A stretch of 64,000 nucleotides of DNA from a virus, in the IMG/VR virus record IMGVR_UViG_3300030685_000353, positions 1 through 64,000 of that record; one strand, 5' to 3'. Position numbers and translations under genes: made by a program. Numbering within the stretch: the stretch's first letter is position 1; each line of letters opens with the position of its first letter. The notes beneath the pieces were generated by a model. It saw nothing but the letters and a program-made list of their open reading frames with translations, had not been told where the DNA came from and did not search any database. Of this stretch, positions 15,302 through 57,808 are shown one piece after another.

Positions 15302-17143
15302 TCACATAAATTCTTTTACGTAACTTATGTCATCACGTTTTTCATCATTGAGCTGACTTAATTCTACTACTGCAGTCTTAAAACGATCAGTTGCAGTATC
15401 TATCATATCTTCTACAACATAGCCAAAATCTTCAGATAAACAAAATGTTGCACCATACATTGTAGTTACTGCTACGTCATCATATCCTGACTGTGATGAA
15501 TACGATCCTTTATTGTTTATACCGAATGCACTTAGTTCATTATACGTGGTCTCTTCTGTGACTATTATTCGTTTTTCTAGTACAAGCTTTCTCAATTCAC
15601 GACAGAACATCATCTTATTATGTTGGTACAATCTTATACCCATCGAGAAAAATCTTGCCTTTTCATTATGTCTAGTATGTAAGAATATCTCATCGTAATA
15701 GTTTTCATTTTTACGCAGTTTTTCTACAAAATAATCGCCTTTGAAGTTCATTTCTAGCGCAACTTTTATGTTCTCTGTTTTGAAAACTTCGAAAAATAAA
15801 ATTTCGGCTATCTGTGCCACATCTTCTACAGCCGTAAGATTCGATCTATACATGCCGACTTGTCTTAGTCTAAAGAAACTTCGTTCATCTTCAATTCTAT
15901 CTTTTCTCAATTTTCTCATAGAAGCTATACTCATCTCTTCTATTTTAAAGATATTAATTACTGAAAAATCTCGCCCTACTCCATCGGCTAAATCGACTGT
16001 AAATGTAAATTTATCTGTATCTTTTATCTCATCTAAATTAAAGTCTGGATGCCACTTTAAGTCTTTATATTTTATATCGCTGAATTCGAATGCATCAATC
16101 TGTTTCCATACATATTTCTTTACGATCTTTTTTAGATAACGTAATGAATCAGACGTTAACAACAATGAATCTGATGAAATAAATTGGTTACCGTACTCTT
16201 GATTGAATAGTTCTTCGGAACCCAAATTGGCAATTTCTCGTTTCTTCCAATTTTCATCTCTACCTGGTACTTGCCACCAATCTACACGGAATGCAGAATA
16301 CTCATTCTTGCCATCTTGTCCGGGTTCTTTCAGAGCATTTGAATAAATTTCCCAGAACTTATTTTGACCATTAGCGGTCGAGGTTATGATTACACGTGAA
16401 ATCTGTGATGATGAAAGTGTAGGATATACAGAACGATAGAACGGTTCAATAAAGTTACCATGGATATGGGCAAACTCATCCATGAATAATAAGTGTAATG
16501 TAAAACCGATAGCTGCAGTTTTAGTAGTACTCTGACACATGATTCTACATCCATTGTCAAATTTCATTGTCATTACGTTATTCTGAGCTATGCCAGGTTT
16601 CATGAAGAATGGTAATCCCTTTATGACAGATTTTGTCTTGTCAACGATTTCAGCAGCAGTAGCACCTTTATTCGCTAATACCATGACATTCTTTTCAATA
16701 TTGAATAAAACGTACCATGCTATAAATATACCAGTCATAACAGTTTTACCAATTTGTCTACTAGCTAGTACAACAGACCATCTATTATGTTGATAATGGC
16801 GTAATAAATCTTCTTGATACGGTCGTAAAGTGATTCTTCGTATGCCTTCATCAGTCATTGATACGGCATAATTATTTGCGAAATAGACAATATCATTTGC
16901 ACATTTTACAAGCTCTGAAAGTTCATAGTCTGTGTACTCGTATACTAGATCAGCTCCCTTAAAGTCGATATCACCTTCATAAAACGGGGAGCCTCCTATT
17001 GGGGGATTTCCATTCTCTATCTGTGCACGTAATTCATTAACAAGCTCAGTGTTCCAAACCCTTATTTTTCCATGTTGTTGACCAGATCGTTGATTTTGTT
17101 TAAGATTTCTATTTGTTAATGGTTGATTCATGTTAAAATCCAA
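15302..17143 (-). CDS. Terminase large subunit (T4 gp17-like)
   Basis: LRPYQ, Walker A ASRQIGKT, Walker B LFMDEFAH, ITSTANG, FNQEY, nuclease TVDLADG...YDDVAV. Confidence 0.95.
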   Translation of the reverse strand: MDFNMNQPLTNRNLKQNQRSGQQHGKIRVWNTELVNELRAQIENGNPPIGGSPFYEGDIDFKGADLVYEYTDYELSELVKCANDIVYFANNYAVSMTDEGIRRITLRPYQEDLLRHYQHNRWSVVLASRQIGKTVMTGIFIAWYVLFNIEKNVMVLANKGATAAEIVDKTKSVIKGLPFFMKPGIAQNNVMTMKFDNGCRIMCQSTTKTAAIGFTLHLLFMDEFAHIHGNFIEPFYRSVYPTLSSSQISRVIITSTANGQNKFWEIYSNALKEPGQDGKNEYSAFRVDWWQVPGRDENWKKREIANLGSEELFNQEYGNQFISSDSLLLTSDSLRYLKKIVKKYVWKQIDAFEFSDIKYKDLKWHPDFNLDEIKDTDKFTFTVDLADGVGRDFSVINIFKIEEMSIASMRKLRKDRIEDERSFFRLRQVGMYRSNLTAVEDVAQIAEILFFEVFKTENIKVALEMNFKGDYFVEKLRKNENYYDEIFLHTRHNEKARFFSMGIRLYQHNKMMFCRELRKLVLEKRIIVTEETTYNELSAFGINNKGSYSSQSGYDDVAVTTMYGATFCLSEDFGYVVEDMIDTATDRFKTAVVELSQLNDEKRDDISYVKEFM

Positions 17144-17657
17144 ATTTTGTAGACATGATTAGACCGCGTTTATTTGTCATAAAGTCTTTTAATGACAAAT
17201 CACTGTTTAACCATGCATCTAGCAAATCTTTATCGTAGATAATAGTACACTCTTCTGCTGATATTGAAGGAGTATCTTCAAATACATATCTCTCTTTGAC
17301 ATTTTTCGGGGCATATTCGATAGTTTCTAACTTAGCACAATGTCTACAGTAGAAGCTTAGATCTATTCTTTCAGGTGCTCCCCTTAATGTCTTTAACTCA
17401 TCACAGTTAAGAAGAAGTAATGTACCACAAATTATACGTGGACCTCCTTCTAATGATTCAATATGAGAATTAGCACAAGAAAAATATCCATCTACTGTAC
17501 CAATCTGTAACGGTAAAAAAGATTTAGCTGTTACTTTGCTAGTTCCTAACCATTCTAAATTACCATGTACATCAACTTCACCCTTTTCATTGATAGTATA
17601 CGGTTCCTTTTTTGAGGTAGGGTTTTTTATGAGTGACTTTAATTCTTGTATCGTCAT
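17133..17657 (-). CDS. LRR-like repeat protein (SLEGGP/TLRGAP units) with C-terminal RGLIMSTKFGF tag
   Basis: Repeats IESLEGGP, LKTLRGAP, LETIEYAP; lies between the terminase subunits. Confidence 0.6.
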   Translation of the reverse strand: MTIQELKSLIKNPTSKKEPYTINEKGEVDVHGNLEWLGTSKVTAKSFLPLQIGTVDGYFSCANSHIESLEGGPRIICGTLLLLNCDELKTLRGAPERIDLSFYCRHCAKLETIEYAPKNVKERYVFEDTPSISAEECTIIYDKDLLDAWLNSDLSLKDFMTNKRGLIMSTKFGF

Positions 17658-18307
17658 TTTATTTCTTCAAATTTATCTTGTCCTTGCTCTTTTATAGCAT
17701 CATGTAAAAGTCCGATAAGTCCTCTTGTTCCTCTAAATTTAGAGCTATCTTGTTGTCCCATGACTTCTACGTCACCTTCTCCGACTTCTAGAACTTTTTC
17801 TGCTTTAGAATTTTCATAGTCAAATTTAAGATTCTTGTAATTGTTTTCCATTACAACCATGAATTGTGCTAAATGTTTTACTATCTCCATTTTTGATTTC
17901 TGAAGAGAAGCTAAAACTTCAAATGATCTAGCATGTAAATTACCGTTATCAATTTCTTCCAGTAATTTTTTTATTGCATGTTCAGAGGTTTTCATTTGGG
18001 ATATTAAATCGGATACTGTCAATTTATCGACCGACATCTTTTGTTTAACATATTCATGCTCCACTACAAACTCTACAGGCAGATAAAGTAATACCACTGA
18101 TTCTACTATTTCTTCTGCTTTATTGTCAGTTTCTTGTTGTAATACGGCATAGTTAAGAGGTTTAATTGAACTCATAGCAGGCAAATCAACTTTACCAGCT
18201 TCTTTTACTTCGGCTAAATCAGTCCGTAAAATTGTATTTTCGAGGTCTTCAGCGATCTTTTTTAAATGATCCATGTGCTCGTTCGTTGTATTTCGGTTAG
18301 TTTTCAT
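17654..18307 (-). CDS. Terminase small subunit (T4 gp16-like)
   Basis: HARSFEVLASLQKS resembles the gp16 PRxxEV motif; FRGT..L tail; upstream of TerL. Confidence 0.65.
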   Translation of the reverse strand: MKTNRNTTNEHMDHLKKIAEDLENTILRTDLAEVKEAGKVDLPAMSSIKPLNYAVLQQETDNKAEEIVESVVLLYLPVEFVVEHEYVKQKMSVDKLTVSDLISQMKTSEHAIKKLLEEIDNGNLHARSFEVLASLQKSKMEIVKHLAQFMVVMENNYKNLKFDYENSKAEKVLEVGEGDVEVMGQQDSSKFRGTRGLIGLLHDAIKEQGQDKFEEIK

Positions 18308-21064: not shown

Positions 21065-21805
21065 TTAATGTTTTAAAGTTTTAAAAGATTTATTTTCTAT
21101 TTGTATATCGAAATCTCGTATTTGATTTCGAGTAATTCTATTTCTATGTACACCAAAGAAATCAGATGCTTTCTTTATAGAGATAAATTCATAATGTTCA
21201 TGCTTCCTATAGACATGAACTGTTACACCCTTATTTCCAGGCTTACGTTTGCTCAATATTTTATCTCTCTGTTCAGCTGTCCAGGATTTCCCTGATAGTG
21301 CTTCAGATAAATGTTTACAGTGTTCAAGAGTTCGCGGAGGTAGTTTTATACCAAGATGTGAATTTCGCAATTTGTCTTTAGCTTCGTCAGTATGTGTTTT
21401 ATTGTACATCCCATTTTTATAGCCTGACACTTTCTCACTTATCAATGTTCTAAGTTTTTCTATATCAGCCGGAAGTCTATCTTTTGACCACCCATTCCTG
21501 AAATTTTTCACGAATTTAGATAGATTACCTCCTTGACCACCTGATACAAGGTTGTAACTCATCTTGTCATTTACTGCATCAGTTTGCTCTATCCATATAG
21601 CTTCTCTCTGAGAAAGTTGTTCAAGGGTTTCGCACTCTTCTAATATTTCCTTCTTAAAATTTTCTTTGCCATATTTCTTAATAGCAGACAAGATTGCAGT
21701 ACCTGAACCCAGATACCCGTAATAGTTTTTAGCATCTTTCCCTATGTACCATTTGCCGTTTATTTGATTTACAGTTTTGTATATGACCATACCTTTATAG
21801 AACAC
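21065..21805 (-). CDS. Free-standing GIY-YIG homing endonuclease (Seg-like) with NUMOD3-type repeats
   Basis: VIYKTVNQINGKWYIGK, YLGSG, YNLVSGG, HTDEAKDKLR; real start may be the Met at about 21790. Confidence 0.88.
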   Translation of the reverse strand: MFYKGMVIYKTVNQINGKWYIGKDAKNYYGYLGSGTAILSAIKKYGKENFKKEILEECETLEQLSQREAIWIEQTDAVNDKMSYNLVSGGQGGNLSKFVKNFRNGWSKDRLPADIEKLRTLISEKVSGYKNGMYNKTHTDEAKDKLRNSHLGIKLPPRTLEHCKHLSEALSGKSWTAEQRDKILSKRKPGNKGVTVHVYRKHEHYEFISIKKASDFFGVHRNRITRNQIRDFDIQIENKSFKTLKH

Positions 21806-24776: not shown

Positions 24777-25637
24777 TCATATCAGATATGTATCTAGATC
24801 ATACGACAGAGCATTTTTTAAAATATCGCTTCCGAGAATAGAAATAGCTATTGCTGCAGCTATTCTAGAATTAAATAGACCAGGTTGACCAGAATTTTTA
24901 GTATAAGCTGATATGTACGGTTCACCGTCATCATTTAACGATATTTCAGATATCGTTCGCTTATCGCATTTTGACAATACACTTGCTATCCTACGTATAC
25001 GTTTTCTATTCTTCAATTTTTCTATCTCAGATAGAGCTATTTCTATTTCACCAAATTCTAATGCTCCTCCACTTACTGACCACCCATCTTCATGAAATTC
25101 CTCACCTTTATCTTCGATACTAATTTGTAATTTATAACGAAGACTCGATGTGTCGTCAGATATGAAAGAAGATTTAGCAAGCTCATACATATAGTCAGGT
25201 ATAAACTCTATCAAGTCTTCTTTTTGCGTTTTAAAAAATTTACGTTCAGGCGTATTGATGTCTAAAAAGACATATAGCATTTTATGACGTAATCTGTCAT
25301 ATTCCATACCCTGTAGTATCAATGGGTAATCTTTATCTTTTACTGTAAATACTTTACCGTTTTCCCAGCCTTTATTTTTTCTATACGGAATATAGAAATC
25401 ATAAGTCTGTTCGAATGAAGCTAATGAAAACGTATCAGCTGATACGTTTTCATATAGTGTATTTCCATTTATGTCTTCTACCCAAATCTTCTTTTTGTAG
25501 GTTCCTTCTACTCTTGTAACAATACAAAGATTTTGATCATCATCTAGTAAAATGTCATTTAATCTTGGAGTATGCCATTCTCTTAATGACCAGTCTTTAT
25601 TTATTACATCTTTACTTGCACGATCTTGTTTTAACAT
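24777..25637 (-). CDS. Hypothetical protein
   Basis: 286 aa ORF. Confidence 0.7.
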   Translation of the reverse strand: MLKQDRASKDVINKDWSLREWHTPRLNDILLDDDQNLCIVTRVEGTYKKKIWVEDINGNTLYENVSADTFSLASFEQTYDFYIPYRKNKGWENGKVFTVKDKDYPLILQGMEYDRLRHKMLYVFLDINTPERKFFKTQKEDLIEFIPDYMYELAKSSFISDDTSSLRYKLQISIEDKGEEFHEDGWSVSGGALEFGEIEIALSEIEKLKNRKRIRRIASVLSKCDKRTISEISLNDDGEPYISAYTKNSGQPGLFNSRIAAAIAISILGSDILKNALSYDLDTYLI

Positions 25638-26059
25638 TAGAATCCAAACTTTCTGCTCATTATTAATCCTCTATGCGCCTGACGTTCCTCAGCTGTCTTA
25701 AAAATCTTAGAGCCTATTTTTTCCCACCCTTTTAGCTCTTGGTTAGCTCGTTTAATAACTTTATTTATGCATTTTATGATCGAAGCATCACCATCTTCAT
25801 CTACTACACCTACATATTGACGATCTCCAGTCCAGATAGTATATTTTACTGGTTCTTTTACTTCATCATTTTTATGATATATCATGATTTTAAATGCGAT
25901 ATCTTTTGGAATATCTCCATGAGGCGATATAATTACATCTTCATGAAACTTAAATGTTATAGTACCATTTTTCTCCTGTCTTTTAGTAGAAGCGTAAACT
26001 AATCCTAAAGCTAGAAGCTTATCATATTCTTTAAATTTCGTGAGCTGATCGATATTCAT
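25637..26059 (-). CDS. Hypothetical protein with STKRQEKNGT motif and C-terminal RGLIMSRKFGF tag
   Basis: ORF; motifs shared with 47089..47472 and 55601..56395. Confidence 0.7.
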   Translation of the reverse strand: MNIDQLTKFKEYDKLLALGLVYASTKRQEKNGTITFKFHEDVIISPHGDIPKDIAFKIMIYHKNDEVKEPVKYTIWTGDRQYVGVVDEDGDASIIKCINKVIKRANQELKGWEKIGSKIFKTAEERQAHRGLIMSRKFGF

Positions 26060-26073
26060 TACATATTGTTATT

Positions 26074-27327
26074 TTAAAATAGAGCTGAAGAACCCGAGTT
26101 TGCTCCTTTAGATGTACCAAGTTTTATGCCAGATGTTACTGGCTTGCCTAATACTCCAACATTATCTTCTGCTCCAACAAATGATCCACCATATCCCTGA
26201 GGTACAAAGCTTTTCTTATCAGTCCACCAATGTGTTCCTTCTAAGATTTGCTCTCTTGCCATATTAATAGGAGAAGATGTTATTTCATTCGATATAAGTA
26301 TGAATGCATTTTGTATTTCTTTCGGGATAACGTCGAAATTAAGTATAACGAGTGTAATGTTTCTGTGTATAAGTTTTTGAATATCGTCTTTCTTATAGAC
26401 AATTCCGTTAGATTTATATACAGTATTCACTGCATCTACAAAAAATTCTGTCATTTCTCCAGATTGAAGATTCTGCCAAGTAACAGGAGATAAAGTAGCT
26501 AATGCCTTATCTAATTTGGAATCAGTCATTCCACGTGTTTTTGTAACGTCTTTTTTATCTATCCATGTGATTACTCCTGGTACTGCATCACCACCGTCTC
26601 CTAAGATAACTTTACGTGTTGCTACTCTATCAGGATCAGTAATCTGATGATCATTGTGACTAAGCAATATGTCTAAAATGTTGCTTGTTCCTGCCCAACT
26701 TTCTGGATTAAATAAATTGAACAAATCGTCACCGGTAGTATCATTTTCAACATCATTTACAAGTCTAGAATCATAAGTTTCTTGTGTTAATATGATTCTT
26801 CTTCTATTTGATACTGGATCTAAAACGATAGTAAACGATCCGTTTTTATGAGTCTGAATACACTGGTGTAAATCTCGGTCACCTGTAACAAGCATTACAG
26901 ATTCTCCTATGTCATTAAGTCTTCTTGACCATAAAAACAAAAGATCATCAGCTTCTGCATCTTTAACCTTTGATATTATATATCCTTTAGATTGTAAAAT
27001 TTCACCAAACTCGTTCGTTAATTCATAGAATGAAGTCCAATCTATTGTAGGTTTTTCTTCATCATGGGCCCGGTTACTTTTATATCCTCCTCCGTCTATC
27101 GGAATCTTTTTCCTCCATGAGTTAGAGTCTAAGCACACTATAACTCTATTTACATTTTCTATTGATTTGACTAATGCAGCAAAATCAGTAGCAAGCTTTC
27201 TAATAAAAACTCCCTTGGAATCATCAGATTCCAAGAGAAGTTGTCCTTTTTTTACACCGTAATTACCAATCGTAAATAAAGTTCTATAAAATATGCCACT
27301 TGCGTCTATAACAAGATTTAATTTCAT
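26074..27327 (-). CDS. rnh: RNase H/5'-3' exonuclease (T4 RNase H/FEN family)
   Basis: LVIDAS, SWRK, YKSNR, EADD, TGDRDL, GDGGDAVPG. Confidence 0.88.
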   Translation of the reverse strand: MKLNLVIDASGIFYRTLFTIGNYGVKKGQLLLESDDSKGVFIRKLATDFAALVKSIENVNRVIVCLDSNSWRKKIPIDGGGYKSNRAHDEEKPTIDWTSFYELTNEFGEILQSKGYIISKVKDAEADDLLFLWSRRLNDIGESVMLVTGDRDLHQCIQTHKNGSFTIVLDPVSNRRRIILTQETYDSRLVNDVENDTTGDDLFNLFNPESWAGTSNILDILLSHNDHQITDPDRVATRKVILGDGGDAVPGVITWIDKKDVTKTRGMTDSKLDKALATLSPVTWQNLQSGEMTEFFVDAVNTVYKSNGIVYKKDDIQKLIHRNITLVILNFDVIPKEIQNAFILISNEITSSPINMAREQILEGTHWWTDKKSFVPQGYGGSFVGAEDNVGVLGKPVTSGIKLGTSKGANSGSSALF

Positions 27328-28027: not shown

Positions 28028-28050
28028 AATTTTATTAATTTTTGATTGAT

Positions 28051-47006: not shown

Positions 47007-47088
47007 GATAATGGTTTATATTAATGATGGTTCCAAGTTTAAGACGAATACTCGAAGGAAACGTCTTAAACTTGGTCTATCCTTGCTG

Positions 47089-47472: not shown

Positions 47473-47644
47473 AATATTAAGAACAGATGATTTGACCTAC
47501 TACATAGAATACAAGGCATGAAAAGAGGGTGATTTCCCAAGGAGAAGATTTTTTGATGAGTTGTTTGATACGTTTCATATTGTTTAATTTTTAATTACAA
47601 TACAAATATAATACAATTCTATCAAGTGGGGAAACGTAAGATGA

Positions 47645-47806: not shown

Positions 47807-48324
47807 TAGTCTATCAGAAATTTGAGGCGGTACATTCTTGTGTTGCCATTATCGTAAGGGTCATTGATGATTCCGTGGAATATCCAAAGGTCATCTGATT
47901 CCACTCTATCAGTAGCATCTAGGATACATTTAGTTATTTCGCGAAGGGAAGTAGGAGCGTTGTCCACTTTGATATCGATTGCGATATCACAATCTTCTGT
48001 GGCCCTGCCATTGTTTTTAACAGATGAACAATAGATTTTATGACCGTAAAATTTGAGGGACTTTTCCAGTTTGGCTTTCTGTTTCAGAAGAAGTTCGTGA
48101 CGAGGATCGATTACTGTGACATCTACTGTTTCTTTGTAGTTCTCAATGTCATTGAAGATCGTGGAAGAGTTAATTCCAGTACAAATTGAAAGCATATTGG
48201 CCATGTCTGAATGAGTAAAGATCGGATCATTCGATAGATGGTTATGAGCGTTCTTGATAAGAAGTTTGTAGTGCTCTTTAATGTGTCGTTTATCGACTTC
48301 TAATTGTGAGGGAATATTGTTCAT
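47806..48324 (-). CDS. Hypothetical protein
   Basis: ORF behind a promoter repeat. Confidence 0.65.
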   Translation of the reverse strand: MNNIPSQLEVDKRHIKEHYKLLIKNAHNHLSNDPIFTHSDMANMLSICTGINSSTIFNDIENYKETVDVTVIDPRHELLLKQKAKLEKSLKFYGHKIYCSSVKNNGRATEDCDIAIDIKVDNAPTSLREITKCILDATDRVESDDLWIFHGIINDPYDNGNTRMYRLKFLID

Positions 48325-48387
48325 AAGTTTTATTTTTAATTACAATACAAATTTAATACAATTCTATCAATATTGAAAACGCTGGAG

Positions 48388-48894
48388 CTATAATTTTTGC
48401 AGTTCAGAGAGTCGAATTCTTATCCTTGCAAGTTCTTCATCAGTGTAAGTGCCCGGGATGATATTTTGAGGATTTATGCGACTCCAAACGACTTTGCCGT
48501 CATGTATTAAGTCCCATGATATAAATTGGTTAAATCTGAGCTCTTTCTTTTTACCTTTCTTTCTGAGTATGAGAAGGTCATTATCAAGTCCGTAGCTTCC
48601 GAAGATGTAGCATTCGCATTCTTGAGCGGTTTGGAAGCAGTGGATTGAATCATCCTGGTATTCGTGTAATCGAATAGTGACTTTATCTCCAGGTTTGAGT
48701 CCCATACTCTCAAGGTGTGCTTGGCCGTAGATTTCTTCTTTCTTTTTGTAACTTTCTAATACGGCTAATTCACTTTCACAAATATGATCGATCTGTTCCG
48801 CTGTAAGTAGACAACGGGTAGTTTGGAAGTACCTCATTCCCATATATTCTCTTACTTCTTGAGTCATGTAGTCCCAAAGTTCTGTTTTTGTCAT
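48388..48894 (-). CDS. Hypothetical protein
   Basis: ORF. Confidence 0.65.
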   Translation of the reverse strand: MTKTELWDYMTQEVREYMGMRYFQTTRCLLTAEQIDHICESELAVLESYKKKEEIYGQAHLESMGLKPGDKVTIRLHEYQDDSIHCFQTAQECECYIFGSYGLDNDLLILRKKGKKKELRFNQFISWDLIHDGKVVWSRINPQNIIPGTYTDEELARIRIRLSELQKL

Positions 48895-48895
48895 C

Positions 48896-49072
48896 TTAGC
48901 GTTGATTACGTGAATTGTAGCGATCGATTGTCTCTTGATCAGTTTGACCGGGTCTGGCTTCTATTTGAACTCCTTTTGCCACTGTAACCATGCGTCCTTT
49001 TATTACTCCCATTGCTAGTTTCGTAGCTGGTACTTTACTTTTGTATACTCCGTATTTTGTATTATTGTCCAT
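48896..49072 (-). CDS. Small basic hypothetical protein
   Basis: Start corrected to MDNNTK, downstream of the promoter repeat. Confidence 0.6.
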   Translation of the reverse strand: MDNNTKYGVYKSKVPATKLAMGVIKGRMVTVAKGVQIEARPGQTDQETIDRYNSRNQR

Positions 49073-49140
49073 ATTGATTGTTTTATTAATTACAATACAA
49101 ATATAATACAATTCTATCAAAGTGGGAAAAGCTTGATAAA

Positions 49141-49362
49141 CTAAAATCCGTCGAATCCTAAAGTTACTGCCTCTTTGAGGTTTGCAACTTTTTTGGCGTT
49201 AGGGTACGTGGTCATGATTTCTTCCTCTGTGAGGATATTGTGAACAAGAACTTCTCCATGTAACATGCATGCTACGTATTTCTGAGAAGCGACAGCCTTA
49301 CCGAAAGTAGCGTACGTTTTATCGACTGGTAAAAAGTAGAGGTTTCCTATTGTGAATAACAT
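49141..49362 (-). CDS. Hypothetical protein
   Basis: Start corrected to MLFTIG. Confidence 0.55.
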   Translation of the reverse strand: MLFTIGNLYFLPVDKTYATFGKAVASQKYVACMLHGEVLVHNILTEEEIMTTYPNAKKVANLKEAVTLGFDGF

Positions 49363-49370
49363 AATTTGTC

Positions 49371-49715
49371 TTATTTTGTGGATGGTGTGATTGGTAGAAT
49401 GTAAACGTATCCATCGTATCCTTTGCATTTCCCTGAAGTGCAAGAAACGTAAGAAATAAGGTAATAAAAAGCCTCTGGGCGTTCTGAGTTTTCTGATTGG
49501 AGGAAAACTGATTGGTGAACAGAGCATCCTGATGGATATCTATTCTCTACTCTGGTTTCTGGATCGCCATACCAAGTGACTAATTGATGGGCTGCATTCC
49601 ATAGATTGTCTCCTTGTTTAACTGGAGTTCCGAAATCTGCTGCATCCTCGAAGATTTTAACTGCTCTTTTTTCTAAAAGTGCTTTACAATGGAATCCTTC
49701 TTTATATACTGACAT
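49371..49715 (-). CDS. Hypothetical protein
   Basis: Start corrected to MSVYKEG. Confidence 0.6.
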   Translation of the reverse strand: MSVYKEGFHCKALLEKRAVKIFEDAADFGTPVKQGDNLWNAAHQLVTWYGDPETRVENRYPSGCSVHQSVFLQSENSERPEAFYYLISYVSCTSGKCKGYDGYVYILPITPSTK

Positions 49716-49778
49716 AATGTATGATATTTTAATTACAATACAAATATAATACAATTCTATCAGTATGGGAAACGCTAA

Positions 49779-50201
49779 TCAATTTTTTGACAATTTTATT
49801 TTTCGTGCAAGTTCTTCATATGAATAGTCTCCAACTACTGCATCCATTATGAGAACATCGGGTGATTCAATGTTAGTACCCTTTCCATTGATAGTATCTC
49901 CTTTGGCGTAAGTATTATGTAAGGCGTTCGTAATGCCACTTTGTGAATAATAATGCAGAGTGCCATTGCCATCCTTTACGATTATGTCGTACATAGCGGA
50001 ATATCCTACTACAATAATCGGTCGTTTCAGAGTATTGAGTTCATGACATACGTACTCATTATACTCATCGATATTTTGGGGTGAAGCTACTTTACGAAAG
50101 TCTTTGTCAACTTGGTAGATCGTGCCTATTGTGAATCCCATATATGCATTGCCTGCCATTAAAAATAGTGCTATTGCACCGATGATCAGTATCTTTTTCA
50201 T
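49779..50201 (-). CDS. Exported or membrane-anchored protein
   Basis: Signal-peptide-like MKKILIIGAIALFLMAG. Confidence 0.6.
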   Translation of the reverse strand: MKKILIIGAIALFLMAGNAYMGFTIGTIYQVDKDFRKVASPQNIDEYNEYVCHELNTLKRPIIVVGYSAMYDIIVKDGNGTLHYYSQSGITNALHNTYAKGDTINGKGTNIESPDVLIMDAVVGDYSYEELARKIKLSKN

Positions 50202-50203
50202 GT

Positions 50204-50794
50204 TTAAAATTTTGAAATAGGAAAGTGGAACGGAAATCTTGATTGGTATGCGGATTGTCTACGTAAGAACTTTAGTTCTCCTTCTTCTCTTTCTCTGTGA
50301 AGGTCTAAGAGGTCCTTTTCGCGATCAGATTGATTAACATATACTCTGATTCTGCCATTTAAACAGAAACCGAACGTTTGTCCTTTATTTATTTCTACAT
50401 TTCCCGTGACCATATTAGTGATTGGGAATGTAATAACTATGCCATCTCTAGGGGTTTGAGTTACCGCTTGGACGCGTTCAGTAACTGATACAGGTTCTTT
50501 ATCACCAAAGAAGTGTAGGCAATAAATTGTATCACCAGCTTTAACATCTTCAAGTTCTTTATAGTCGAGGCGGTTGGCTTTTGCCATAATGTCAGCTGCT
50601 AGAGCTTTACATTTCTCGATTATTTCTGGTTGGTAAGGTAGACATTTTCCAGCCTTCCATTCTTTGCCACCGACTGTGACTTCTGTCTTTTCTGGGACTC
50701 CCGAAGGTAAATCACCACTGTACTGAATAAAGGCTCTGAATACTCCTGTATTCGTGAATCGAACCGTGATGTGTACTTTATTTGTTGTGTTCAT
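50204..50794 (-). CDS. Hypothetical protein
   Basis: Start corrected to MNTTNK. Confidence 0.65.
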   Translation of the reverse strand: MNTTNKVHITVRFTNTGVFRAFIQYSGDLPSGVPEKTEVTVGGKEWKAGKCLPYQPEIIEKCKALAADIMAKANRLDYKELEDVKAGDTIYCLHFFGDKEPVSVTERVQAVTQTPRDGIVITFPITNMVTGNVEINKGQTFGFCLNGRIRVYVNQSDREKDLLDLHREREEGELKFLRRQSAYQSRFPFHFPISKF

Positions 50795-50857
50795 TTGATT
50801 TATAATTTGATTACAATACAAATATAATACAATTCTAATGAAGTGAGAAACGTAAGT

Positions 50858-51094
50858 TTACAATTTTGTAACTATAGCGTCTGGAACGACTTCTTTTATT
50901 GCGATATCTAAAAATTCGTGACCAGTGTTAAATGCGACTAACATGTGGTTAGTTATATGTCCTGTTTCGATTAAGATAGTAGCTATTTGGCTATAATCTA
51001 ATCGTTTACGTATCAGGACAAGAACTTCAGGGTTCTGACATGTTATCTGAAGTCCATTCGGCGTTTGATCTCTATTTATTGTTATCAGTGTCAT
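50858..51094 (-). CDS. Hypothetical protein
   Basis: ORF. Confidence 0.55.
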   Translation of the reverse strand: MTLITINRDQTPNGLQITCQNPEVLVLIRKRLDYSQIATILIETGHITNHMLVAFNTGHEFLDIAIKEVVPDAIVTKL

Positions 51095-51377
51095 TTTGTT
51101 CTCTTCGTGCTTTGCGTAGTTTAACCAATTCTGAATAGTTAATAAGTGTCATGTCATACATTCCTTTTGGCCACCGTGAAAGTTCGGCATTCTCATTGAA
51201 CGTAAGTTTATCGTCTTCGTGCATTATATAATACTCCTGAGTGAGGTTCGCTTTAAGGAGGTCTATTTGGAAAGAAGTTAGTTCAACGTCATTGTTCAAA
51301 ACTCCAGCATATTTGTCATCTTTCGTATAGACCCTTAGGATAGGGTATGTGTATCTTCTAATTGGGAACTTTTTCAT
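51072..51377 (-). CDS. Hypothetical protein
   Basis: ORF. Confidence 0.6.
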   Translation of the reverse strand: MKKFPIRRYTYPILRVYTKDDKYAGVLNNDVELTSFQIDLLKANLTQEYYIMHEDDKLTFNENAELSRWPKGMYDMTLINYSELVKLRKARREQNDTDNNK

Positions 51378-51383
51378 AGTTGA

Positions 51384-51755
51384 TTATTTTGTTGTTACAA
51401 ATTCGAGTTCGTCTCCGTATACTGTGCTGTATTTAGTTGTGATATATGCACGAATATAATATTTTGTGTTCGGTTGGAGGTCGCTTAAGTTGGCAGTAAA
51501 AGTGATTGGAGTTTTGGCCTTTTCAAACAATTCTTGATTCAGTGACATAATTTTGGTATCACGAATAGTGGGTTGTGGATGTGTAGACCAGACTACTCCA
51601 GTTTCTGTTAAAGAGCTTACATGAATGCCGTATCCACCAGATGTCGCATAATTAGCGGAAATCTTGGTTACGGGCGTTGTACTGATATACTGTGTGGTCT
51701 CTGATGTACAACTGAGAGTGAAAAGGATAAGGGCGAAGAGGATATACTTTTTCAT
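51384..51755 (-). CDS. Lipoprotein with fibronectin type III domain
   Basis: MKKYILFALILFTLSC lipobox; GVVWSTHPQPT...LSDLQPNTKYYIRAY...YGDELEFVT, typical of Bacteroidota FN3 modules. Confidence 0.75.
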   Translation of the reverse strand: MKKYILFALILFTLSCTSETTQYISTTPVTKISANYATSGGYGIHVSSLTETGVVWSTHPQPTIRDTKIMSLNQELFEKAKTPITFTANLSDLQPNTKYYIRAYITTKYSTVYGDELEFVTTK

Positions 51756-51956
51756 TATAAATGGAATAAGATGATGAATACTAATCCTAAGATAATTGAA
51801 AGTGCCACGAGGCAAATTTTCTGATAAGTAGTGAAGCGTTTCATATTGTTATGTTTTAATTACAATACAAATATAATACAATTCTATCAGTTTGGGAAAC
51901 GTAAGCAAAAAAAAAGAAGAGAACTGAGTCCCTTCTTCTTTTTAACAGATTGTTTT

Positions 51957-52640
51957 TTATTTAGCTATAAAGTGAACTGAAAGCATACCGGGTGAGTCTG
52001 TGGCTGGAGCGATCATTACGTCTTTCCAACCGGCTTCCAAGTAGAGTGCCTTGACTTCTTCTAGAATATCGGTGCTTATGCCCTTTGCGTTAATAAAAGA
52101 GTGAATGAAACCGTCTTCTCTAACGTCTTTCGGGTTAGCGTCTTTAACATGAGCTTCGAAGATTGCCACTGTTTCTTCAAGGGAAAGATCGGGGAAGAAC
52201 TTTTTAGGCCCGGTTACAGAGAATGGGCTTTCTTCTCCTACTGGAGGAAGAGAAATGGGCCAGATACCAACCATATCGGCTTCTTTAACTTCATATCCTG
52301 AATCATGGGCTAATGCTTGAGCTTCTATGAATCCGATTCGAGTTCCTGGTGCATTAACCAGTACGGCATAGAATGATTCAGGGTCTCCATTATGAATATC
52401 AAAGACTACGAGGTGGTTTGGATCGGGCATACCTCTGTGTACTGGAATCAACCAACTTTCTGGATAACCAAATTTGTCATCTTCTTCAATGAGGTTCATT
52501 TGAGGATGTGACCTTAATAGAAAGGTGATGTTAATGTTGTTCTTTTCGAAGCCGGAAATACTCCAATTTCTGTTTGATATGAGGATGCAGGGGTTACATC
52601 TTGCATCTGAAATTTCTGATTTGAAAATAATTTTGTCCAT
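51957..52640 (-). CDS. Hypothetical protein
   Basis: ORF behind a promoter repeat. Confidence 0.65.
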   Translation of the reverse strand: MDKIIFKSEISDARCNPCILISNRNWSISGFEKNNINITFLLRSHPQMNLIEEDDKFGYPESWLIPVHRGMPDPNHLVVFDIHNGDPESFYAVLVNAPGTRIGFIEAQALAHDSGYEVKEADMVGIWPISLPPVGEESPFSVTGPKKFFPDLSLEETVAIFEAHVKDANPKDVREDGFIHSFINAKGISTDILEEVKALYLEAGWKDVMIAPATDSPGMLSVHFIAK

Positions 52641-52701
52641 TTGATTTTATTATTTGATTACAATACAAATATAATACAATTCTAACGAAGTGTAAAACGT
52701 A

Positions 52702-53064
52702 TCAATAATTATGTAATCTAAGTGTGTGGTCGATATAAAAATCTACAAGGGACTCGATGAATCCATTTCCTTTCGGGAGGTACAGTTCAGAATAATCGTT
52801 GGTTAAAATTTCTTCACGTTTTCCCATTATTGTAACTGTGATGCATTCCTCGTTTGAACCGAAAGTCTTCGTGAATTGTTGGAACTCGTACTTTTCAGTT
52901 ATTTCGTCACCATTTCTGAATTTAATGGAGATGTCTGATTCGCATTCGTCTACAGTACCGGTTACTTCTTCTACGAGGTGATGCCATCTCCAATTTTCGA
53001 CATTTCCTGCTTCTGCCTTGATTACAGTGGCATCACCTTGTAGTTTTAAAAGTGTCTTTAACAT
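52702..53064 (-). CDS. Acidic hypothetical protein
   Basis: ORF. Confidence 0.6.
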   Translation of the reverse strand: MLKTLLKLQGDATVIKAEAGNVENWRWHHLVEEVTGTVDECESDISIKFRNGDEITEKYEFQQFTKTFGSNEECITVTIMGKREEILTNDYSELYLPKGNGFIESLVDFYIDHTLRLHNY

Positions 53065-53297
53065 TTCTTTTTCCCTTTCTTTTTCTCAATTAGAGGTTTA
53101 GGGGCTAAAGAAGATCGGAACCATGCTGCATTTGCGAAAGAAAATTCTGGTGCTTCTTCTTTTTGAAAGAGTTCAGGGTGGCGGGTTCCTGATGCTATGG
53201 ATTGTGCTACGGCAGAATTTGTGTCTACCGAACGTGCTGAATGTTTAAATCCTGATAAAGTTTTGTCTTGTACGTCTCCGATATGTCCTGATCTCAT
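53058..53297 (-). CDS. Hypothetical protein with basic tail
   Basis: Start corrected to MRSGHIG. Confidence 0.55.
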   Translation of the reverse strand: MRSGHIGDVQDKTLSGFKHSARSVDTNSAVAQSIASGTRHPELFQKEEAPEFSFANAAWFRSSLAPKPLIEKKKGKKKC

Positions 53298-53381
53298 AAT
53301 GTATAATTTTATATTGTTGTTTTTAATTACAATACAAATATAATACAATTCTAACAGTGTAGGAAACGCTACTCAATTTAT

Positions 53382-53606
53382 TTATTCATGATGTTTTTTA
53401 CAATTATAAATCCGTGCTCTTCTGGAACGTACTATTGAGGTGACTACTGCAATAATGATCGATTCTGCATTGATCAAGATTACGTCCCCTATTTTCGGTC
53501 TGATGCGGTCTGAATTGAACTGTGTCGTTCGACCTCTGTGCAAAATCTTGATTATATGTTTCATGTGGCTTAGCAGACGCATAAGGCTTTGTGCCTTTGT
53601 GCCCAT
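53382..53606 (-). CDS. Small basic hypothetical protein
   Basis: ORF; real start possibly MKHIIK. Confidence 0.4.
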   Translation of the reverse strand: MGTKAQSLMRLLSHMKHIIKILHRGRTTQFNSDRIRPKIGDVILINAESIIIAVVTSIVRSRRARIYNCKKHHE

Positions 53607-53637
53607 ATAGTGCGCAATGTTTGTCTTAAATGTACAA

Positions 53638-53675
53638 GAAACTGCATCCTTATAATTGTTAAGGATGCAGTTTTT
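53638..53675. terminator. Strong hairpin/terminator after the histone-like gene
   Basis: aaactgcatcctta-taattgt-taaggatgcagttt. Confidence 0.75.
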
Positions 53676-53692
53676 ATATTTCCTTACCCGGA

Positions 53693-54265
53693 TTAATTAT
53701 GGGCTAGGATGGCTTTTTTCAATTTGAAAATCTTTTTGTTACCTTCGATTTCGATACGTAACCATTCATCTCCTTTTTCATCTTTGTCGTAAACTTTCAG
53801 GAGTTTTCCTTCTTGAACCCCGGCTGATCGGAATTTTGAATTTCGGGCTGGGAGGAATGATACGATTTGGTCAGCTTTAAGAGCGGTTTCCGGAGTCATA
53901 AGGTTGGTGGCGTTCGGTGTGATACCATCGATAACTTTCGGAGTAAGTTTTACCTTTGCAGGTTTTTCAGCTTTTGGTGTTACCACTTTTTCAGCTTTTA
54001 CTTTGGCCACTTTTTCAGCTTTTGGTTTTTCAGTTTTTTCCTTGGCTACCTTTTCAGTTTTAGGTGCTTCTGTTTTTTCAGCTTTTGGTTTGGCCACTTT
54101 TTCAGCTTTTGGTTTTTCAACTTTTGCCTTTGGAGCTGTTTTTTCGTTACGAGATGCTACGATTTCTTGGGCTGAGGCTAAATCTTCAGGAGATAAGTTA
54201 CCAGTAGCGATTTTTTTGTTAAGTTCAGTTGTACTGAATTTTGACATTGGGTTTGTTGTTGACAT
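53693..54265 (-). CDS. Lys/Ala/Pro/Glu-rich (histone H1-like) repeat protein
   Basis: Repeats KAEKVAKPKAEK, KTEKPKAEKVAK; preceded by three tandem promoters. Confidence 0.7.
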   Translation of the reverse strand: MSTTNPMSKFSTTELNKKIATGNLSPEDLASAQEIVASRNEKTAPKAKVEKPKAEKVAKPKAEKTEAPKTEKVAKEKTEKPKAEKVAKVKAEKVVTPKAEKPAKVKLTPKVIDGITPNATNLMTPETALKADQIVSFLPARNSKFRSAGVQEGKLLKVYDKDEKGDEWLRIEIEGNKKIFKLKKAILAHN

Positions 54266-54306
54266 AATTTCTAAGTTTTTGGAAGTTTATAAAATTGTTA
54301 TTGATT

Positions 54307-54526
54307 AATTACTATACAAAAATAATACTTTTTGAATGAATGGTAAAAAGTATTTCAAATTATTTTTTCGTTTTGTAAAAGAAATGTTTAGTTTGATTTA
54401 CTATACAAAAATAATACTTTTTGACTGAATGGTAAAAAGTATTTCAAATTATTTTTTACGTTAAAAAATAATGTTTGGTTTGATTTACTATACAAAAATA
54501 ATACTATTCTATAGGTTAGTAAAACG
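54307..54526 (-). repeat. Three tandem ~88-bp promoter-containing repeats
   Basis: ttactatacaaaaataatact occurs three times; tgaatggtaaaaagtatttcaaattatttttt occurs twice. Confidence 0.85.
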
Positions 54527-54537
54527 TATCGAAAAAA

Positions 54538-54771
54538 TTATTCCTCTATAATAAGTTTATTTTCGAACATAGAAGGAAATTCGGTAACGTTCTCACCTTC
54601 TATTTCTAGCATCTTACATACTATTTTTTCTTGCTTGTCATGGACAGTAATTTTGCCGTACGAATCAAATTGAAGCTCTATGCCTAATTTAGTCATCAGG
54701 TCTTCAATCTGTCTGAGTTTCTGAGTTGTTGGATGTGTCTCCAGTAGTCGCTTTGCCATCTTTGTGATCAT
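54538..54771 (-). CDS. Hypothetical protein
   Basis: ORF. Confidence 0.55.
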   Translation of the reverse strand: MITKMAKRLLETHPTTQKLRQIEDLMTKLGIELQFDSYGKITVHDKQEKIVCKMLEIEGENVTEFPSMFENKLIIEE

Positions 54772-55022
54772 TTATTAGTGGTACAAATATCATTAGTGCT
54801 AGTAAAAGTGTAGCGACTAAGAATGAAAAAATTAACTCTTCGAAAATATTGAGTTCCATTAGTCGAGGATTTCAAATTCTGCTTCCTCTACAACTCTAAC
54901 TTCTGCTGTGGCGAGGTAAATGAATACCAAAAGTGCCATAATTTCAAGATCTGTCATATTATTGTTATGTTTTAATTACAATACAAATATAATACAATTC
55001 TATCAGCTGGGGAAAAGTCTGG

Positions 55023-55319
55023 TCAATAATTTTGTTTTAACCAAGACTTGAAGCTATTCTTTTTATTTCGTTGATCGTTTTGAGTCTTAAGCGTGGCATA
55101 GAATATGTCGTACTCTTTATAAATTTCATCCCAACTTGGCTTCGTGAAGTCGTTTTTAGGATAGGAATACATTTCGTACCCTAATCGATCTACCAATTTA
55201 CGGGCTGAGGCTTTCATTTCGTCATCGTGACAATCATTTTGATAATTTCCTAATGCCACTGCTATTAAAGCTATCTCTTTACACGATAGTTTCGTTTTTA
55301 TTACTCCATTAATGTCCAT
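55023..55319 (-). CDS. Hypothetical protein
   Basis: ORF. Confidence 0.55.
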   Translation of the reverse strand: MDINGVIKTKLSCKEIALIAVALGNYQNDCHDDEMKASARKLVDRLGYEMYSYPKNDFTKPSWDEIYKEYDIFYATLKTQNDQRNKKNSFKSWLKQNY

Positions 55320-55321
55320 AA

Positions 55322-55537
55322 TTATCTGTATAAAATTACATGTTCACCGAAATATTTTTCAAATACACTTATAAGATTCTCGTAATCTCCAGAGGTTAAT
55401 TCAGCTTGAATTGCGTCGTGGTCGAGGCCGAGTTGTTTAGATAAGTCGCTGGCATATCCAAGTAATACAAATGCATTGCCTTGTGGTCCAGTCAGATCTA
55501 GACTTGGATATTCCGGTTCAATTTTTTTCCTTATCAT
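55322..55537 (-). CDS. Conserved small phage protein (LTGPxGNAF type)
   Basis: LDLTGPQGNAFVLLG...SGDYENL. Confidence 0.7.
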   Translation of the reverse strand: MIRKKIEPEYPSLDLTGPQGNAFVLLGYASDLSKQLGLDHDAIQAELTSGDYENLISVFEKYFGEHVILYR

Positions 55538-55600
55538 TTTTTTATTATTTGATTACAATACAAATATAATACATTTCTAACAAATGGTAAAAAGCTTTAC

Positions 55601-56395
55601 TTAAAAACCGAACTTTTTTCCTAAAATTTGTCCCCGTCTTGTATGAACCTCTTCATGTGATAATAATACTATACATTCATTTCGCTTCAATTCATTGTAG
55701 CCGCTTCTCCATTTCTTGTAGAGCAGATCTGCAGCTTTATCCCATCCTTCTTGGGTTTCAGCGATGAATGCCTTATCCTCGTAAAATAAAAATGCATTCC
55801 CTTTAACACCTATTGTAGCATTTTGATTCATTTTGGCATATCCATAACCATTGAACTGTGCCCATGAATTTCGAGTACATATTAATCTCATTGTGAAAAA
55901 GTTACTCAAGTCAAATAGTTCATTTTTCGAGTCGATTATTACAAAATGAGGCAATGTTAATAAAATGCCAACCTCAGTGTCAGAGTTTATGTAACTTATA
56001 TTGAAGCCAGCTTTTTTGTATTTTTTTAATTCAGTGTGCTTTGCCTTACGGAGTAAAGATTCAGAGTCAATATTTAATTCTCTAAGGCGTTGCTCCTCTT
56101 CATTTTGTTTTATCCTTTTAAGGAGCTTTAATAACCCATTCTTCCACCCTTCTAAAGTGTCAGGAATAAAACTTACGCATGGTCTATTGTCGCAATTTAT
56201 TTTTCCGCCATGATAAATTTGATATGACACTTTATAATCATCATTATTGTATCGCTGACGTGATTTTAAGGCCTTTATTTTAAATGTCGTTACAGCTTGC
56301 CTATTCGTTCTAATATTCTCAAAGCCCATCTTCAGAATCTCTTGATATTCAGGGAGGTTCTCAATTACTTTGCGGGTGGTTTCATCAATAATCAT
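55601..56395 (-). CDS. Hypothetical protein with C-terminal RGQILGKKFGF tag
   Basis: ORF behind a promoter repeat. Confidence 0.7.
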   Translation of the reverse strand: MIIDETTRKVIENLPEYQEILKMGFENIRTNRQAVTTFKIKALKSRQRYNNDDYKVSYQIYHGGKINCDNRPCVSFIPDTLEGWKNGLLKLLKRIKQNEEEQRLRELNIDSESLLRKAKHTELKKYKKAGFNISYINSDTEVGILLTLPHFVIIDSKNELFDLSNFFTMRLICTRNSWAQFNGYGYAKMNQNATIGVKGNAFLFYEDKAFIAETQEGWDKAADLLYKKWRSGYNELKRNECIVLLSHEEVHTRRGQILGKKFGF

Positions 56396-56533
56396 AAAAG
56401 TTATTTTTAATTACAATACAAATATAATACAATTCTTCCAACTGGCAAAAAGTAAACATAAAAAAGTGGCCCCTCTTCACAGAGAAACCACCCGGTGGCC
56501 GAAGCCGTGTAATCAAAAATCTTATGAAACTCT

Positions 56534-57041: not shown

Positions 57042-57248
57042 AATTGATTTATTTTATGATACAAAAATAAACAAAAAACTCATTATGGTAAAACGCCTAT
57101 ACACATGCGTTCTTGTGCATTTTGTACAAGCAGCAATTGCAAGGTTGCCATATATAAACCATTAATCGCCTTATTATTGTCATAATACCAGAGTTTACGT
57201 CTTTGAAAAAGGTTTAAATGATATATAAACCAAAATAAATTTGAAAAT

Positions 57249-57389
57249 ATGAAGGTGATAGCTTATATTCTACTCGGCATTCTTCTTACAATTGGTCTAG
57301 CTTATGGAGGATTTGTGCTCTGGGCTAACCGTATATTGAAAGATTTTGTAATAGGTGACTTAGATTTTGATGAAGACGAAATGATTTAA
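57249..57389 (+). CDS. 46-aa single-TM protein with acidic tail
   Basis: MKVIAYILLGILLTIGLAYGGFVLWANRILKDFVIGDLDFDEDEMI; GATATATAAAC at 57220 upstream. Confidence 0.55.
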   Translation: MKVIAYILLGILLTIGLAYGGFVLWANRILKDFVIGDLDFDEDEMI

Positions 57390-57808
57390 AACCCGAATTT
57401 TCGTGACTTAATCATGCCTCGCTTGACATGTTTCCATTCTTCCCATAATGTATATTCTGATTTCTCGAACAGTTTCCAATCAGTAGGAAACTCTTCTTTG
57501 ATAAATTTATAGCTCAAACGTATTGCCATAATGCGAGTTGCTACAGAAGACCAAGGAAGATCTGCAATGATGACTTCCTGATGCATTCCTACGACTACTG
57601 TTTCTACCTTACCCTCAACTGGCTTAAAGTAAAAAACTTGGGCCTTAAGTGCTGGCATATTTTGTAATCCAGAAGTATTTGTGCAATGATCTGAAAGTAT
57701 TTTATCTAAGTACCAAGAACCCTGTTCAGTCACAAGAACAGGGGCAATCCCCTGTTCCCATGGCCAAATACCTAAGCATTCCAGTATTGTATCAACCTTT
57801 GTGTTCAC
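57386..57808 (-). CDS. Hypothetical protein with C-terminal RGMIKSRKFGF tag
   Basis: ORF. Confidence 0.7.
   Translation of the reverse strand: MNTKVDTILECLGIWPWEQGIAPVLVTEQGSWYLDKILSDHCTNTSGLQNMPALKAQVFYFKPVEGKVETVVVGMHQEVIIADLPWSSVATRIMAIRLSYKFIKEEFPTDWKLFEKSEYTLWEEWKHVKRGMIKSRKFGF

Follow-up and report, generated by a model that had tools for sequence, protein, structure and literature searches.

A short terminal address common to diverse phage proteins is a known device, represented by the capsid-targeting sequence (CTS) of phage T4, by clamp-binding tails, and by the cargo-loading peptides of encapsulins. Here we describe a C-terminal tail, designated KFGF after its last four residues, that is carried by otherwise different proteins of an uncultivated virus (IMG/VR record IMGVR_UViG_3300030685_000353). 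The DNA analyzed, referred to below as the window, comprises positions 1 to 64,000 of this 73.5-kb contig (G000); it was compared with a second jumbo-phage fragment of 140 kb (G001) and with a relative of 50.5 kb (G002). A first-pass annotation of the window had noted the tag on four dispersed open reading frames (ORFs) and had read it as a portable docking or sorting signal. We propose, with about an even chance of being right, that diverse accessory proteins are tied to one partner by this tail, a portable docking module used strictly at the C terminus. The novelty lies in the KFGF motif itself, in its strict C-terminal use, and in its scale of 7 to 10% of ORFs; a search of the open-access literature, as far as its accessible text extends, found nothing in print on this motif or on a conserved C-terminal motif of jumbo phages.

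Like the KFGF tail, the CTS is a short conserved terminal peptide found on diverse small accessory or antidefense proteins of T4-like phages. In T4 it has the sequence MKTYQEFIAE at the N terminus (PMC8442874) and, in the accessible text of two reports, is the only conserved part of the internal proteins (PMC3012670, PMC8442874). The CTS is N-terminal and is cleaved off, however, whereas the KFGF tail is C-terminal and unrelated to it in sequence; since a CTS-like N terminus occurs together with the KFGF tail on some proteins, the two are separate modules. The cargo-loading peptides of encapsulins are short and usually C-terminal and, according to the accessible part of one report, suffice to address unrelated proteins to an HK97-fold shell (PMC7355545). 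Encapsulin cargo genes lie beside the shell gene, whereas the tailed phage genes occur in accessory regions, scattered or in arrays; one of them stands beside the terminase gene and the others are dispersed, and Pfam and PHROG scans recognized no major capsid gene in the window. Clamp-binding tails likewise place a short hydrophobic extreme C terminus on different proteins, all of which dock on one hub. Unlike these, the KFGF tail sits on orphan accessory proteins, and the clamp clients of the phages studied here end in …xLF. The likeness to poxviral ankyrin/PRANC proteins is one of architecture only: in the descriptions accessible to us, these form a large set of viral paralogues that act as substrate adaptors, combining variable N-terminal binding repeats with a small conserved domain that plugs into a host hub. 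The F-box domain of PRANC proteins is C-terminal. One tailed protein of the window and two of G001 pair leucine-rich-repeat-like (LRR-like) repeats with the tail, as PRANC proteins pair repeats with the F-box; there is no homology, the hub (Skp1/cullin) is eukaryotic, and most tailed bodies here are not repeat proteins.

The four ORFs of the window are real, and their coordinates were right. All lie on the minus strand, and each ends in [KHR]RGxIxxxKFGF directly before the stop codon; translation of the plus strand at the same four positions gives stops throughout. Gene A (17133..17657, minus strand; 174 amino acids [aa]) has an LRR-like body followed by a C-terminal three-helix module, ends in KRGLIMSTKFGF (tail codons at 17136-17171), and has a conserved 217-aa gene on one side and the large terminase gene on the other. 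Gene B (25637..26059, minus strand; 140 aa) encodes a minimal version of what we call the B-domain and ends in HRGLIMSRKFGF (tail codons at 25640-25675). Gene C (55601..56395, minus strand; 264 aa) encodes two tandem B-domains and ends in RRGQILGKKFGF (tail codons at 55604-55639), and gene D (57386..57808, minus strand; about 140 aa) has an orphan body and ends in KRGMIKSRKFGF (tail codons at 57389-57424). The 143-aa cluster representative P0072 suggests that the start of gene D lies slightly farther upstream. Synonymous codons differ among the four tails (Arg is encoded by CGC, AGA, CGG, CGA, or AGG; Gly by GGT, GGA, GGC, or GGG; Leu by CTA, TTA, CTG, or CTT), and the DNA 3' of the stops is unrelated, which argues for selection on the peptide, as had been supposed.

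A strict pattern, [KR]G.[ILVMT]....[FY]G[FILMV], was searched in six frames over the whole 73.5-kb contig. It matched six times, in all six cases immediately before a stop and never internally. The reversed contig gave no terminal match and one internal match, and 50 shuffles of the contig gave a mean of 0.00 terminal matches (maximum 0) and 0.14 internal ones. In G001 the same pattern matched 21 times, always terminally, so that 27 of 27 matches over the two contigs stand directly before a stop, with none internal. Four further members lie beyond the window: gene E (contig positions 67964-68461), ending in ...KRGLIVGRKFGF; gene F (68418-69209), ending in ...HRGLILSKKYGF; gene H (71263-71706), with the variant tail ...KTKLVAHIFGF; and gene G (72411-72662), with the partial tail ...KITKKFGF. 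Tailed ORFs thus number 8 of 123 in G000 and 23 of 236 in G001 (where ORFs of at least 50 aa were counted), and 16 of the 23 in G001 fall within 2.4-18.2 kb of that contig. G002, whose clamp loader is 69% identical, bears the tail on a different protein of 232 aa.

Occurrence of the tail elsewhere was examined at both the DNA and the protein level. A back-translated DNA pattern for RGxIxxxKFGF-stop found 14 loci in IMG/VR, four of them with real ORFs (two on a single contig, G001); the other 10 had no start, or had stops within the motif. Of the 77 loci from a metagenome scan, 14 held tailed ORFs of at least 70 aa, 33 distinct ones in all; these include 11 near-duplicates of G001 proteins and one dubious ORF, and often two to four of them share a locus of about 3 kb or less. 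The metagenome contigs L127, L131, L136, L142, and L185 have three pattern matches each, about 430 nt apart; two L127 ORFs are paralogues of 135 and 137 aa, both of which end in …YRGKILS[KN]KFGF. A word-indexed search with a tail profile gave 17 matches among 7999 scored candidates, mostly known G000 and G001 proteins and their close relatives.

The first-pass annotation had described the bodies of the four proteins as different. This holds for A, which is LRR-like as claimed, and for D, an orphan that resembles the other members over its last ~45 residues only (E-value of 4.6e-07 against E), but B and C are homologous over their bodies. Descent from one family of full-length homologues therefore applies to B and C, together with E and F outside the window, and not to A and D. 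B matches the C-terminal half of F over B's whole length (4.7e-15), E matches F at 7.3e-13, and C matches F over the last 57 residues of C (7.8e-06). A profile built from these paralogues, run against 1.84 billion representative proteins, returned 58 matches at E<=1e-3, 20 of them at E<=1e-10, and most of the 58 extend to the last or second-last residue. The B-domain is an α/β domain of about 120 aa with the consensus PxYKxL…G…ST..Q.KNGT..F…GYIR…F….T.EGW…, and the family ends in the consensus TPEERHxKRGxIxGxKFG[FIL]. This tail is the best-conserved part of the family: of the 58 representatives, 44 carry the strict motif at the end and 8 a loose variant of it, the other 6 having neither, and internal copies were not found in any of the 58.

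Annotation resources offered little on any of these proteins. For A to D, Pfam gave no family at E<=1 and PHROGs none either, the single PHROG match being on B at an E-value of 0.022; a word-indexed homologue search with gene B returned only B itself. Beyond the contig's own four members of the B-family, Pfam gave one subthreshold match over 54 representatives (P0005-P0058), and PHROGs gave nothing over 43. In the ten B-family clusters that were looked up, the sole source name was "hypothetical protein." The family member P0016 had no match in deposited phages by tblastn at E<=1, and a locus search with P0016 alone found one marginal locus, without a tailed ORF. Pfam found no family in 21 of the 23 tailed G001 proteins (two under 110 aa were left out) and only one subthreshold match in 21 of the 33 metagenomic tailed ORFs, the remaining 12 being near-identical G001 copies in L156, L163, and L183 and the dubious ORF in L155.

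The tailed bodies are unrelated for the most part. After removal of the last 20 residues, 31 tailed proteins fell into 28 BLAST clusters, of which only two had more than one member, namely A with two LRR-like G001 proteins and a pair from G001; merging six B-domain proteins by profile reduces the number to about 24 groups. B-domain proteins account for only 6 of the 31, LRR-like ones for 3, and the pair for 2. A hidden Markov model (HMM) of the B-domain body, from which the last 20 columns had been removed, matched B, E, F, two G001 proteins, and, twice, C (domain E-values of 2.3e-10 and 9.5e-15 for the two halves), but not A, D, G, H, or the other 21 tailed G001 proteins. The same bodies also occur without the tail. 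In C, a first B-domain without it (residues 9-97, about 56105-56371) precedes a second (residues 121-244, about 55664-56035) that leads into RRGQILGKKFGF. P0084 and P0085, the sole nonself homologues of the A body in an index of 5.8 billion proteins, are LRR-like and have no tail. The tail is therefore portable among bodies.

Comparison with related loci indicates that the tailed genes are accessory. Gene A is missing from the same junction in six of six related loci (L003-L008; terminase 58-72% identical), where the 217-aa gene directly abuts the terminase gene, and gene B is missing between the genes for the 5'-3' exonuclease (FEN) and a 286-aa protein in the only relative that covers this junction (L106). 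A tblastn search of 27 terminase-related loci with the tailed G000 proteins gave no match. The clustering of tailed genes in G001 and a promoter-like 18-mer before gene C, described below, point the same way.

Conserved positions of the tail, counted from the last residue, are R(-10), G(-9), I/L/V(-7), G/S(-5), K/R(-4, -3), F/Y(-2), G(-1), and F/I/L(0). In 82 nonredundant tails, a set whose database members were picked by regular expression, so that the counts are biased upward, these amount to 78 for R(-10), 77 for G(-9), 75 for I/L/V(-7), 77 for G/S/A(-5), 80 for F/Y(-2), 78 for G(-1), and 82 for a hydrophobic residue at 0. The tail is not the bare 12-residue peptide of the original description: in many non-B proteins conservation reaches upstream to W[LK]xSGMTxxEFxxKKRG…, and in many proteins the tail is the last helix of a helical module of ~20-35 residues. 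Such a module would begin with an N-capped helix ([ST]-P-E-E… or SGMTxxEF…); a K/R-R-G turn would lead into the second helix (x-I-x-G/S-x-K), and the chain would close with F-G-[FIL], its carboxylate free. The last 20 residues are basic in the 31 tailed proteins (pI of 8.2-11.2), and the highest 19-residue Kyte-Doolittle mean in these proteins is at most 1.47, with no transmembrane-like segment.

Structures of B and A were predicted with AlphaFold2. The model of B, from an alignment of 47 rows, has a mean predicted local distance difference test score (pLDDT) of 86 and a predicted template modeling score of 0.80; it forms an α/β domain over residues 1-118, including a long helix at 91-114, followed by tail helices at 123-128 and 130-137, and its last 20 residues average a pLDDT of 88-91. 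The model of A has low overall confidence (pLDDT of 54) and shows β-strand repeats in the body, with helices at 143-150, 156-162, and 164-172 in the last 32 residues, where 10-residue blocks average 61-77. Both models predict that the tail is a small helical module appended to different bodies rather than a disordered peptide. A Foldseek search with the B model found nothing in the PDB at E<=0.001, ESM Atlas gave no usable match to B, and the top Z score of B in a wide VIA-align search was 6.6, under the 7-8 typical of unmatched models; the weak matches in that search, to ribosome hibernation factors and to small proteins that resemble inhibitors or immunity proteins, were not trusted at Z<=6.6. 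Nearly all of the 50 listed VIA-align rows end by residue 125 of B, and the tail is therefore appended to the domain and outside any matched fold. A complex prediction for B residues 1-118 with the 42-residue tail module of A scored 0.00 against a mark of 0.32, the fold of the partner being uncertain, and bears on binding in neither direction. The three-helix C-terminal module of ~35 residues, with its basic last helix and terminal Phe, appears to us to resemble the villin headpiece, a resemblance for which no sequence support was found: A to D have no Pfam family, VHP included, at E<=1, and a tail profile run against PDB sequences at E<=10 gave no headpiece.

The phages carry at least two other terminal motifs, which bear on what the KFGF tail may do. 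The 5'-3' exonuclease (FEN/RNase H-like; 26074..27327, minus strand; Pfam 5_3_exonuc_N, E-value of 1.2e-12) ends in …SGSSALF, and the NAD-dependent DNA ligase (59065..61044, minus strand; PHROG 3869, 9.9e-118) ends in …SASHSLF. The same C-terminal form, …[ST]x(x)LF, recurs in the PolB (…STQLF) and C5-methylase (…ITALF) of G001, whose genes lie at 116839-118020 and 136941-138143, and the FEN orthologue in L106 (213-1067) ends in …GPAALF. PolB, FEN, ligase, and methylase are classic sliding-clamp clients, and …xLF is likely, from its distribution over these proteins, to be the clamp-binding motif of these phages. None of the four carries the KFGF tail. As the clamp clients carry …xLF, the KFGF tail is probably something else, and the analogy to clamp-binding or single-stranded DNA-binding protein (SSB) tails, which had been suggested, is disfavored. 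No sliding-clamp gene was identified in the window; the 286-aa neighbor of B was considered as a candidate clamp but has no support from Pfam, PHROG, or PDB sequences and nothing above chance in ESM Atlas.

The second motif is N-terminal and CTS-like, of the form MKxxKxF[ED]xF[LIV]xE (for example, MKTFEQFVNE…, MKHLKLFEQFLNE…, and MKLKTFDNFISE…). By a strict regular expression it is present on 18 of 36 long-form B-family proteins (P0008-P0058), with several more close to it, and on none of the 22 short forms. It was also found on 7 of 236 ORFs in G001 (starts at 45249, 55590, 126574, 127963, 131621, 133062, and 133636), none of them tailed, on two tailed ORFs in L118 (122-448 and 780-1196), and on none of the 123 ORFs in G000. 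Judged by this motif, its bearers may be packaged internal proteins. The CTS-like motif and the KFGF tail combine freely, which makes it unlikely that the tail is itself the capsid address; the capsid-loading role suggested earlier is weakened because some tailed proteins already bear a CTS-like N terminus. In G001, a run of genes at 41940-47721 encodes a ClpP-like protease, an AAA ATPase whose N terminus is CTS-like, a DUF2201 metallopeptidase/VWA protein, and a tailed protein of 468 aa.

A promoter-like 18-mer, TTGTATTATATTTGTATT, at 56415..56432 on the minus strand, ends 20 nt upstream of the start of gene C, and C is followed by another copy at 55557-55574. The window contains 14 copies (9 of them exact), where 0.07 would be expected, and the region of the repeat is 46444-56432. 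The whole contig contains 18, those beyond the window being at contig positions 64678, 67926, 70310, and 71225; every one is on the minus strand, and a start codon often follows 20-31 nt later. Below 46 kb there is only a 2-mismatch match at 28.06 kb, and no copy precedes structural genes. The 18-mer resembles a class of phage promoter that would serve the small-ORF region.

Cellular genomes gave two tailed genes only, in L078 (1103-2843) and in L083 (566-2698; a Paludibacter metagenome-assembled genome). In both, the tailed gene is the middle one of a three-gene cassette of the same layout. The tailed proteins, of 119-127 aa, match each other at 9.8e-16, and the downstream proteins, of 128-129 aa, at 1.2e-16. 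Pfam matched none of the cassette genes, the sole PADLOC match, to PD-T4-6 on the tailed protein, is weak (4.2e-05), and the other cassette genes have no homologue in G000 or G001. The L083 cassette adjoins a WCX-domain (WYL-type) regulator; regulators of this type often stand beside defense systems, and the cassette may be a defense-island element.

We read the tail as a docking module because it stands strictly at the chain end, because its sharply defined residues are spread over more than one face of the helix, and because unrelated bodies carry it. The portable docking or sorting signal of the first-pass annotation is supported in part, on the strength of peptide-level selection, the strict C terminus, the unrelated bodies, and the presence of bodies with and without the tail; it does not fit the B-family subset well. 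In a group of uncultivated T4-like jumbo phages, recombination would have placed the tail on many accessory proteins that are small, soluble, and unrelated, where it would dock all its bearers onto one shared macromolecular hub, and the bodies (LRR-like repeats, B-domains, orphans) would provide individual activities or targets. Several tailed genes stand behind the promoter-like motif or look like strain-specific insertions, and the CTS-like N terminus of some relatives suggests packaging and injection; on these grounds the partner would most likely be present early in the infected cell, whether supplied by the host or made early by the phage. A bolder version, which we think possible but doubtful, is that of a proteome-wide address system, in which dozens of accessory proteins that evolve fast would all plug into one hub of the newly infected cell by a module of ~12-35 residues with F-G-F-COOH at its end, some injected by means of a T4-type N-terminal address and others expressed early, and in which the bacterial cassette could exploit or bait the same interaction.

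Several observations weigh against docking. Binding by the tail is inferred, as is what it would bind. The tail is almost never absent from the B-family and could therefore be a structural part of that fold, and the high pLDDT of the tail in the B monomer model would be equally expected from intramolecular packing. Early timing depends on an 18-mer of presumed promoter class, and A and B lie in the late and replication modules. In 596 Gb of prokaryotic genomes there were 35 pattern matches but only two real ORFs; the tail is thus nearly absent from cellular genomes and does not obviously mimic a common host tail. G000 and G001 have in common the tailed proteins, one GIY-YIG endonuclease, one NT5C nucleotidase, and nothing else, so that no candidate hub gene is shared, although this is weak evidence, both contigs being fragments.

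Other explanations account for part of these data. The small residues conserved at -9 (Gly), -5 (Gly/Ser), and -1 (Gly) could reflect self- or hetero-association, in which tail helices pack together through them and give homo-oligomers or mixed oligomers, for example of a binding and an effector body. Small residues at every fourth position are typical of close helix-helix packing, one phage makes many tailed proteins, and the single tailed protein of each bacterial cassette could work in this way without a phage hub. A dimerization helix needs no exact chain end, however, yet all 27 pattern matches are terminal, and the conserved residues are not confined to one helical face; we regard this explanation as unlikely. 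Exact recognition of a free C terminus is typical of protease tags as well as of docking tails, and Clp ATPases dock on ClpP by hydrophobic-Gly-hydrophobic loops, a pattern that the terminal F-G-[FIL] fits. The tail might then act as a degron and set the time at which accessory proteins are removed, or it might serve a Clp-type protease as plug or adaptor. A ClpP-like gene of G001 (Pfam CLP_protease, 2.3e-21) does adjoin the AAA ATPase and DUF2201 genes, with the tailed 468-aa gene directly downstream, but it could be a prohead protease, and neither Pfam nor PHROG found a ClpP gene in the 73.5 kb of G000. Since the motif is sharply defined over about 11 positions, whereas degrons are usually poorly conserved, a role in proteolysis seems improbable. 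We give similarly little credence to a virion-packaging signal, by which the tail would bind scaffold, capsid interior, or packaged DNA and load diverse proteins for injection. Diverse bodies with one terminal peptide recall the T4 internal proteins and encapsulin cargo, in the accessible text of the two accounts (PMC3012670, PMC7355545), the tails are basic, and A adjoins the terminase gene; but a second address would be redundant on the long-form B-family proteins and L118 ORFs that bear a CTS-like motif, the CTS-like and tailed ORFs of G001 do not overlap, and C stands directly behind a promoter-like motif that was not found upstream of structural genes.

Common descent without any tag, the tail being the last recognizable remnant of one diverged family, is very unlikely. 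It would suit B, C, E, F, and two G001 proteins, which share a body domain with a family of 58 representative clusters, but A is LRR-like and has body homologues that lack the tail, D and 20 or more G001 proteins are unmatched by the B-body profile, the predicted architectures differ (an α/β domain in B, β-strand repeats in A), and C holds one B-domain copy without a tail. An amphipathic C-terminal helix that serves as a peripheral membrane anchor, as in some cell-division ATPases, would conserve amphipathicity rather than exact residues, as membrane helices usually do. Here only -7, -2, and 0 are conserved as hydrophobic, and the best-conserved other positions are Arg, Gly, Gly/Ser, Lys, and Gly; although the extreme C terminus is basic and aromatic and two metagenomic tailed ORFs (74 aa in L130 and 172 aa in L118) have hydrophobic N termini, the chance of such an anchor is very small. 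A regulatory nascent peptide, acting in the ribosome at termination, would explain why the motif directly precedes the stop, and the conserved length fits the exit tunnel. It is hardly credible, since the stops vary (TAA, TAG, and TGA) in unrelated downstream contexts, the motif runs upstream into an amphipathic helical module typical of a folded protein, and the tail occurs on so large a share of the ORFs.

If the tail is a docking module, then 7 to 10% of the ORFs in these jumbo-phage fragments, all "hypothetical," would be tied to one interaction. With the partner in hand, dozens of orphan phage proteins would gain a cellular address together, and a hub taken over by these phages could come to light. 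Being short, strictly terminal, and present on many natural bodies, the module is directly testable and possibly useful as a tag. With at least three separate terminal motifs (KFGF, …xLF, and the CTS-like N terminus), these phages would be a tractable model of proteome organization by terminal motifs.

By gene content (PHROG and Pfam scans), G000 is a myovirus, with a T4-type large terminase, tail sheath, tail tube, clamp-loader subunit, and ribonucleotide reductase, in addition to the NAD-dependent ligase, the 5'-3' exonuclease, two sigma factors, and a GIY-YIG endonuclease. Its terminase is at most 38% identical to that of any deposited phage, the nearest being those of huge uncultured phages, Sphingomonas phage PAU, Tenacibaculum phages PTm1/PTm5, and Lak phages; a megablast search of deposited phages with 12 kb of the window gave no match. 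A BT4734-like primase domain (Pfam) fits a Bacteroidota host, as does the repeated 18-mer, which contains TAnnTTTG, presumably equivalent to the -7 promoter box of that phylum. G002 is estimated to be 16% complete at 50.5 kb, and the clade is therefore jumbo-sized. G001, 57% complete by estimate and with a GC content of 32.7%, is T4-like, with a Gp20-type portal, gp15, split PolB, DnaB, UvsX, gp46/47, and topoisomerase II (Pfam). The two sigma-70-family factors of the window (5371-6054 and 27335-28072), which have regions 2 and 4, suggest that the phage directs middle or late transcription. At window positions 21065-21805, conserved genes flank one for a GIY-YIG/NUMOD3 homing endonuclease, which is missing or located elsewhere in some relatives.

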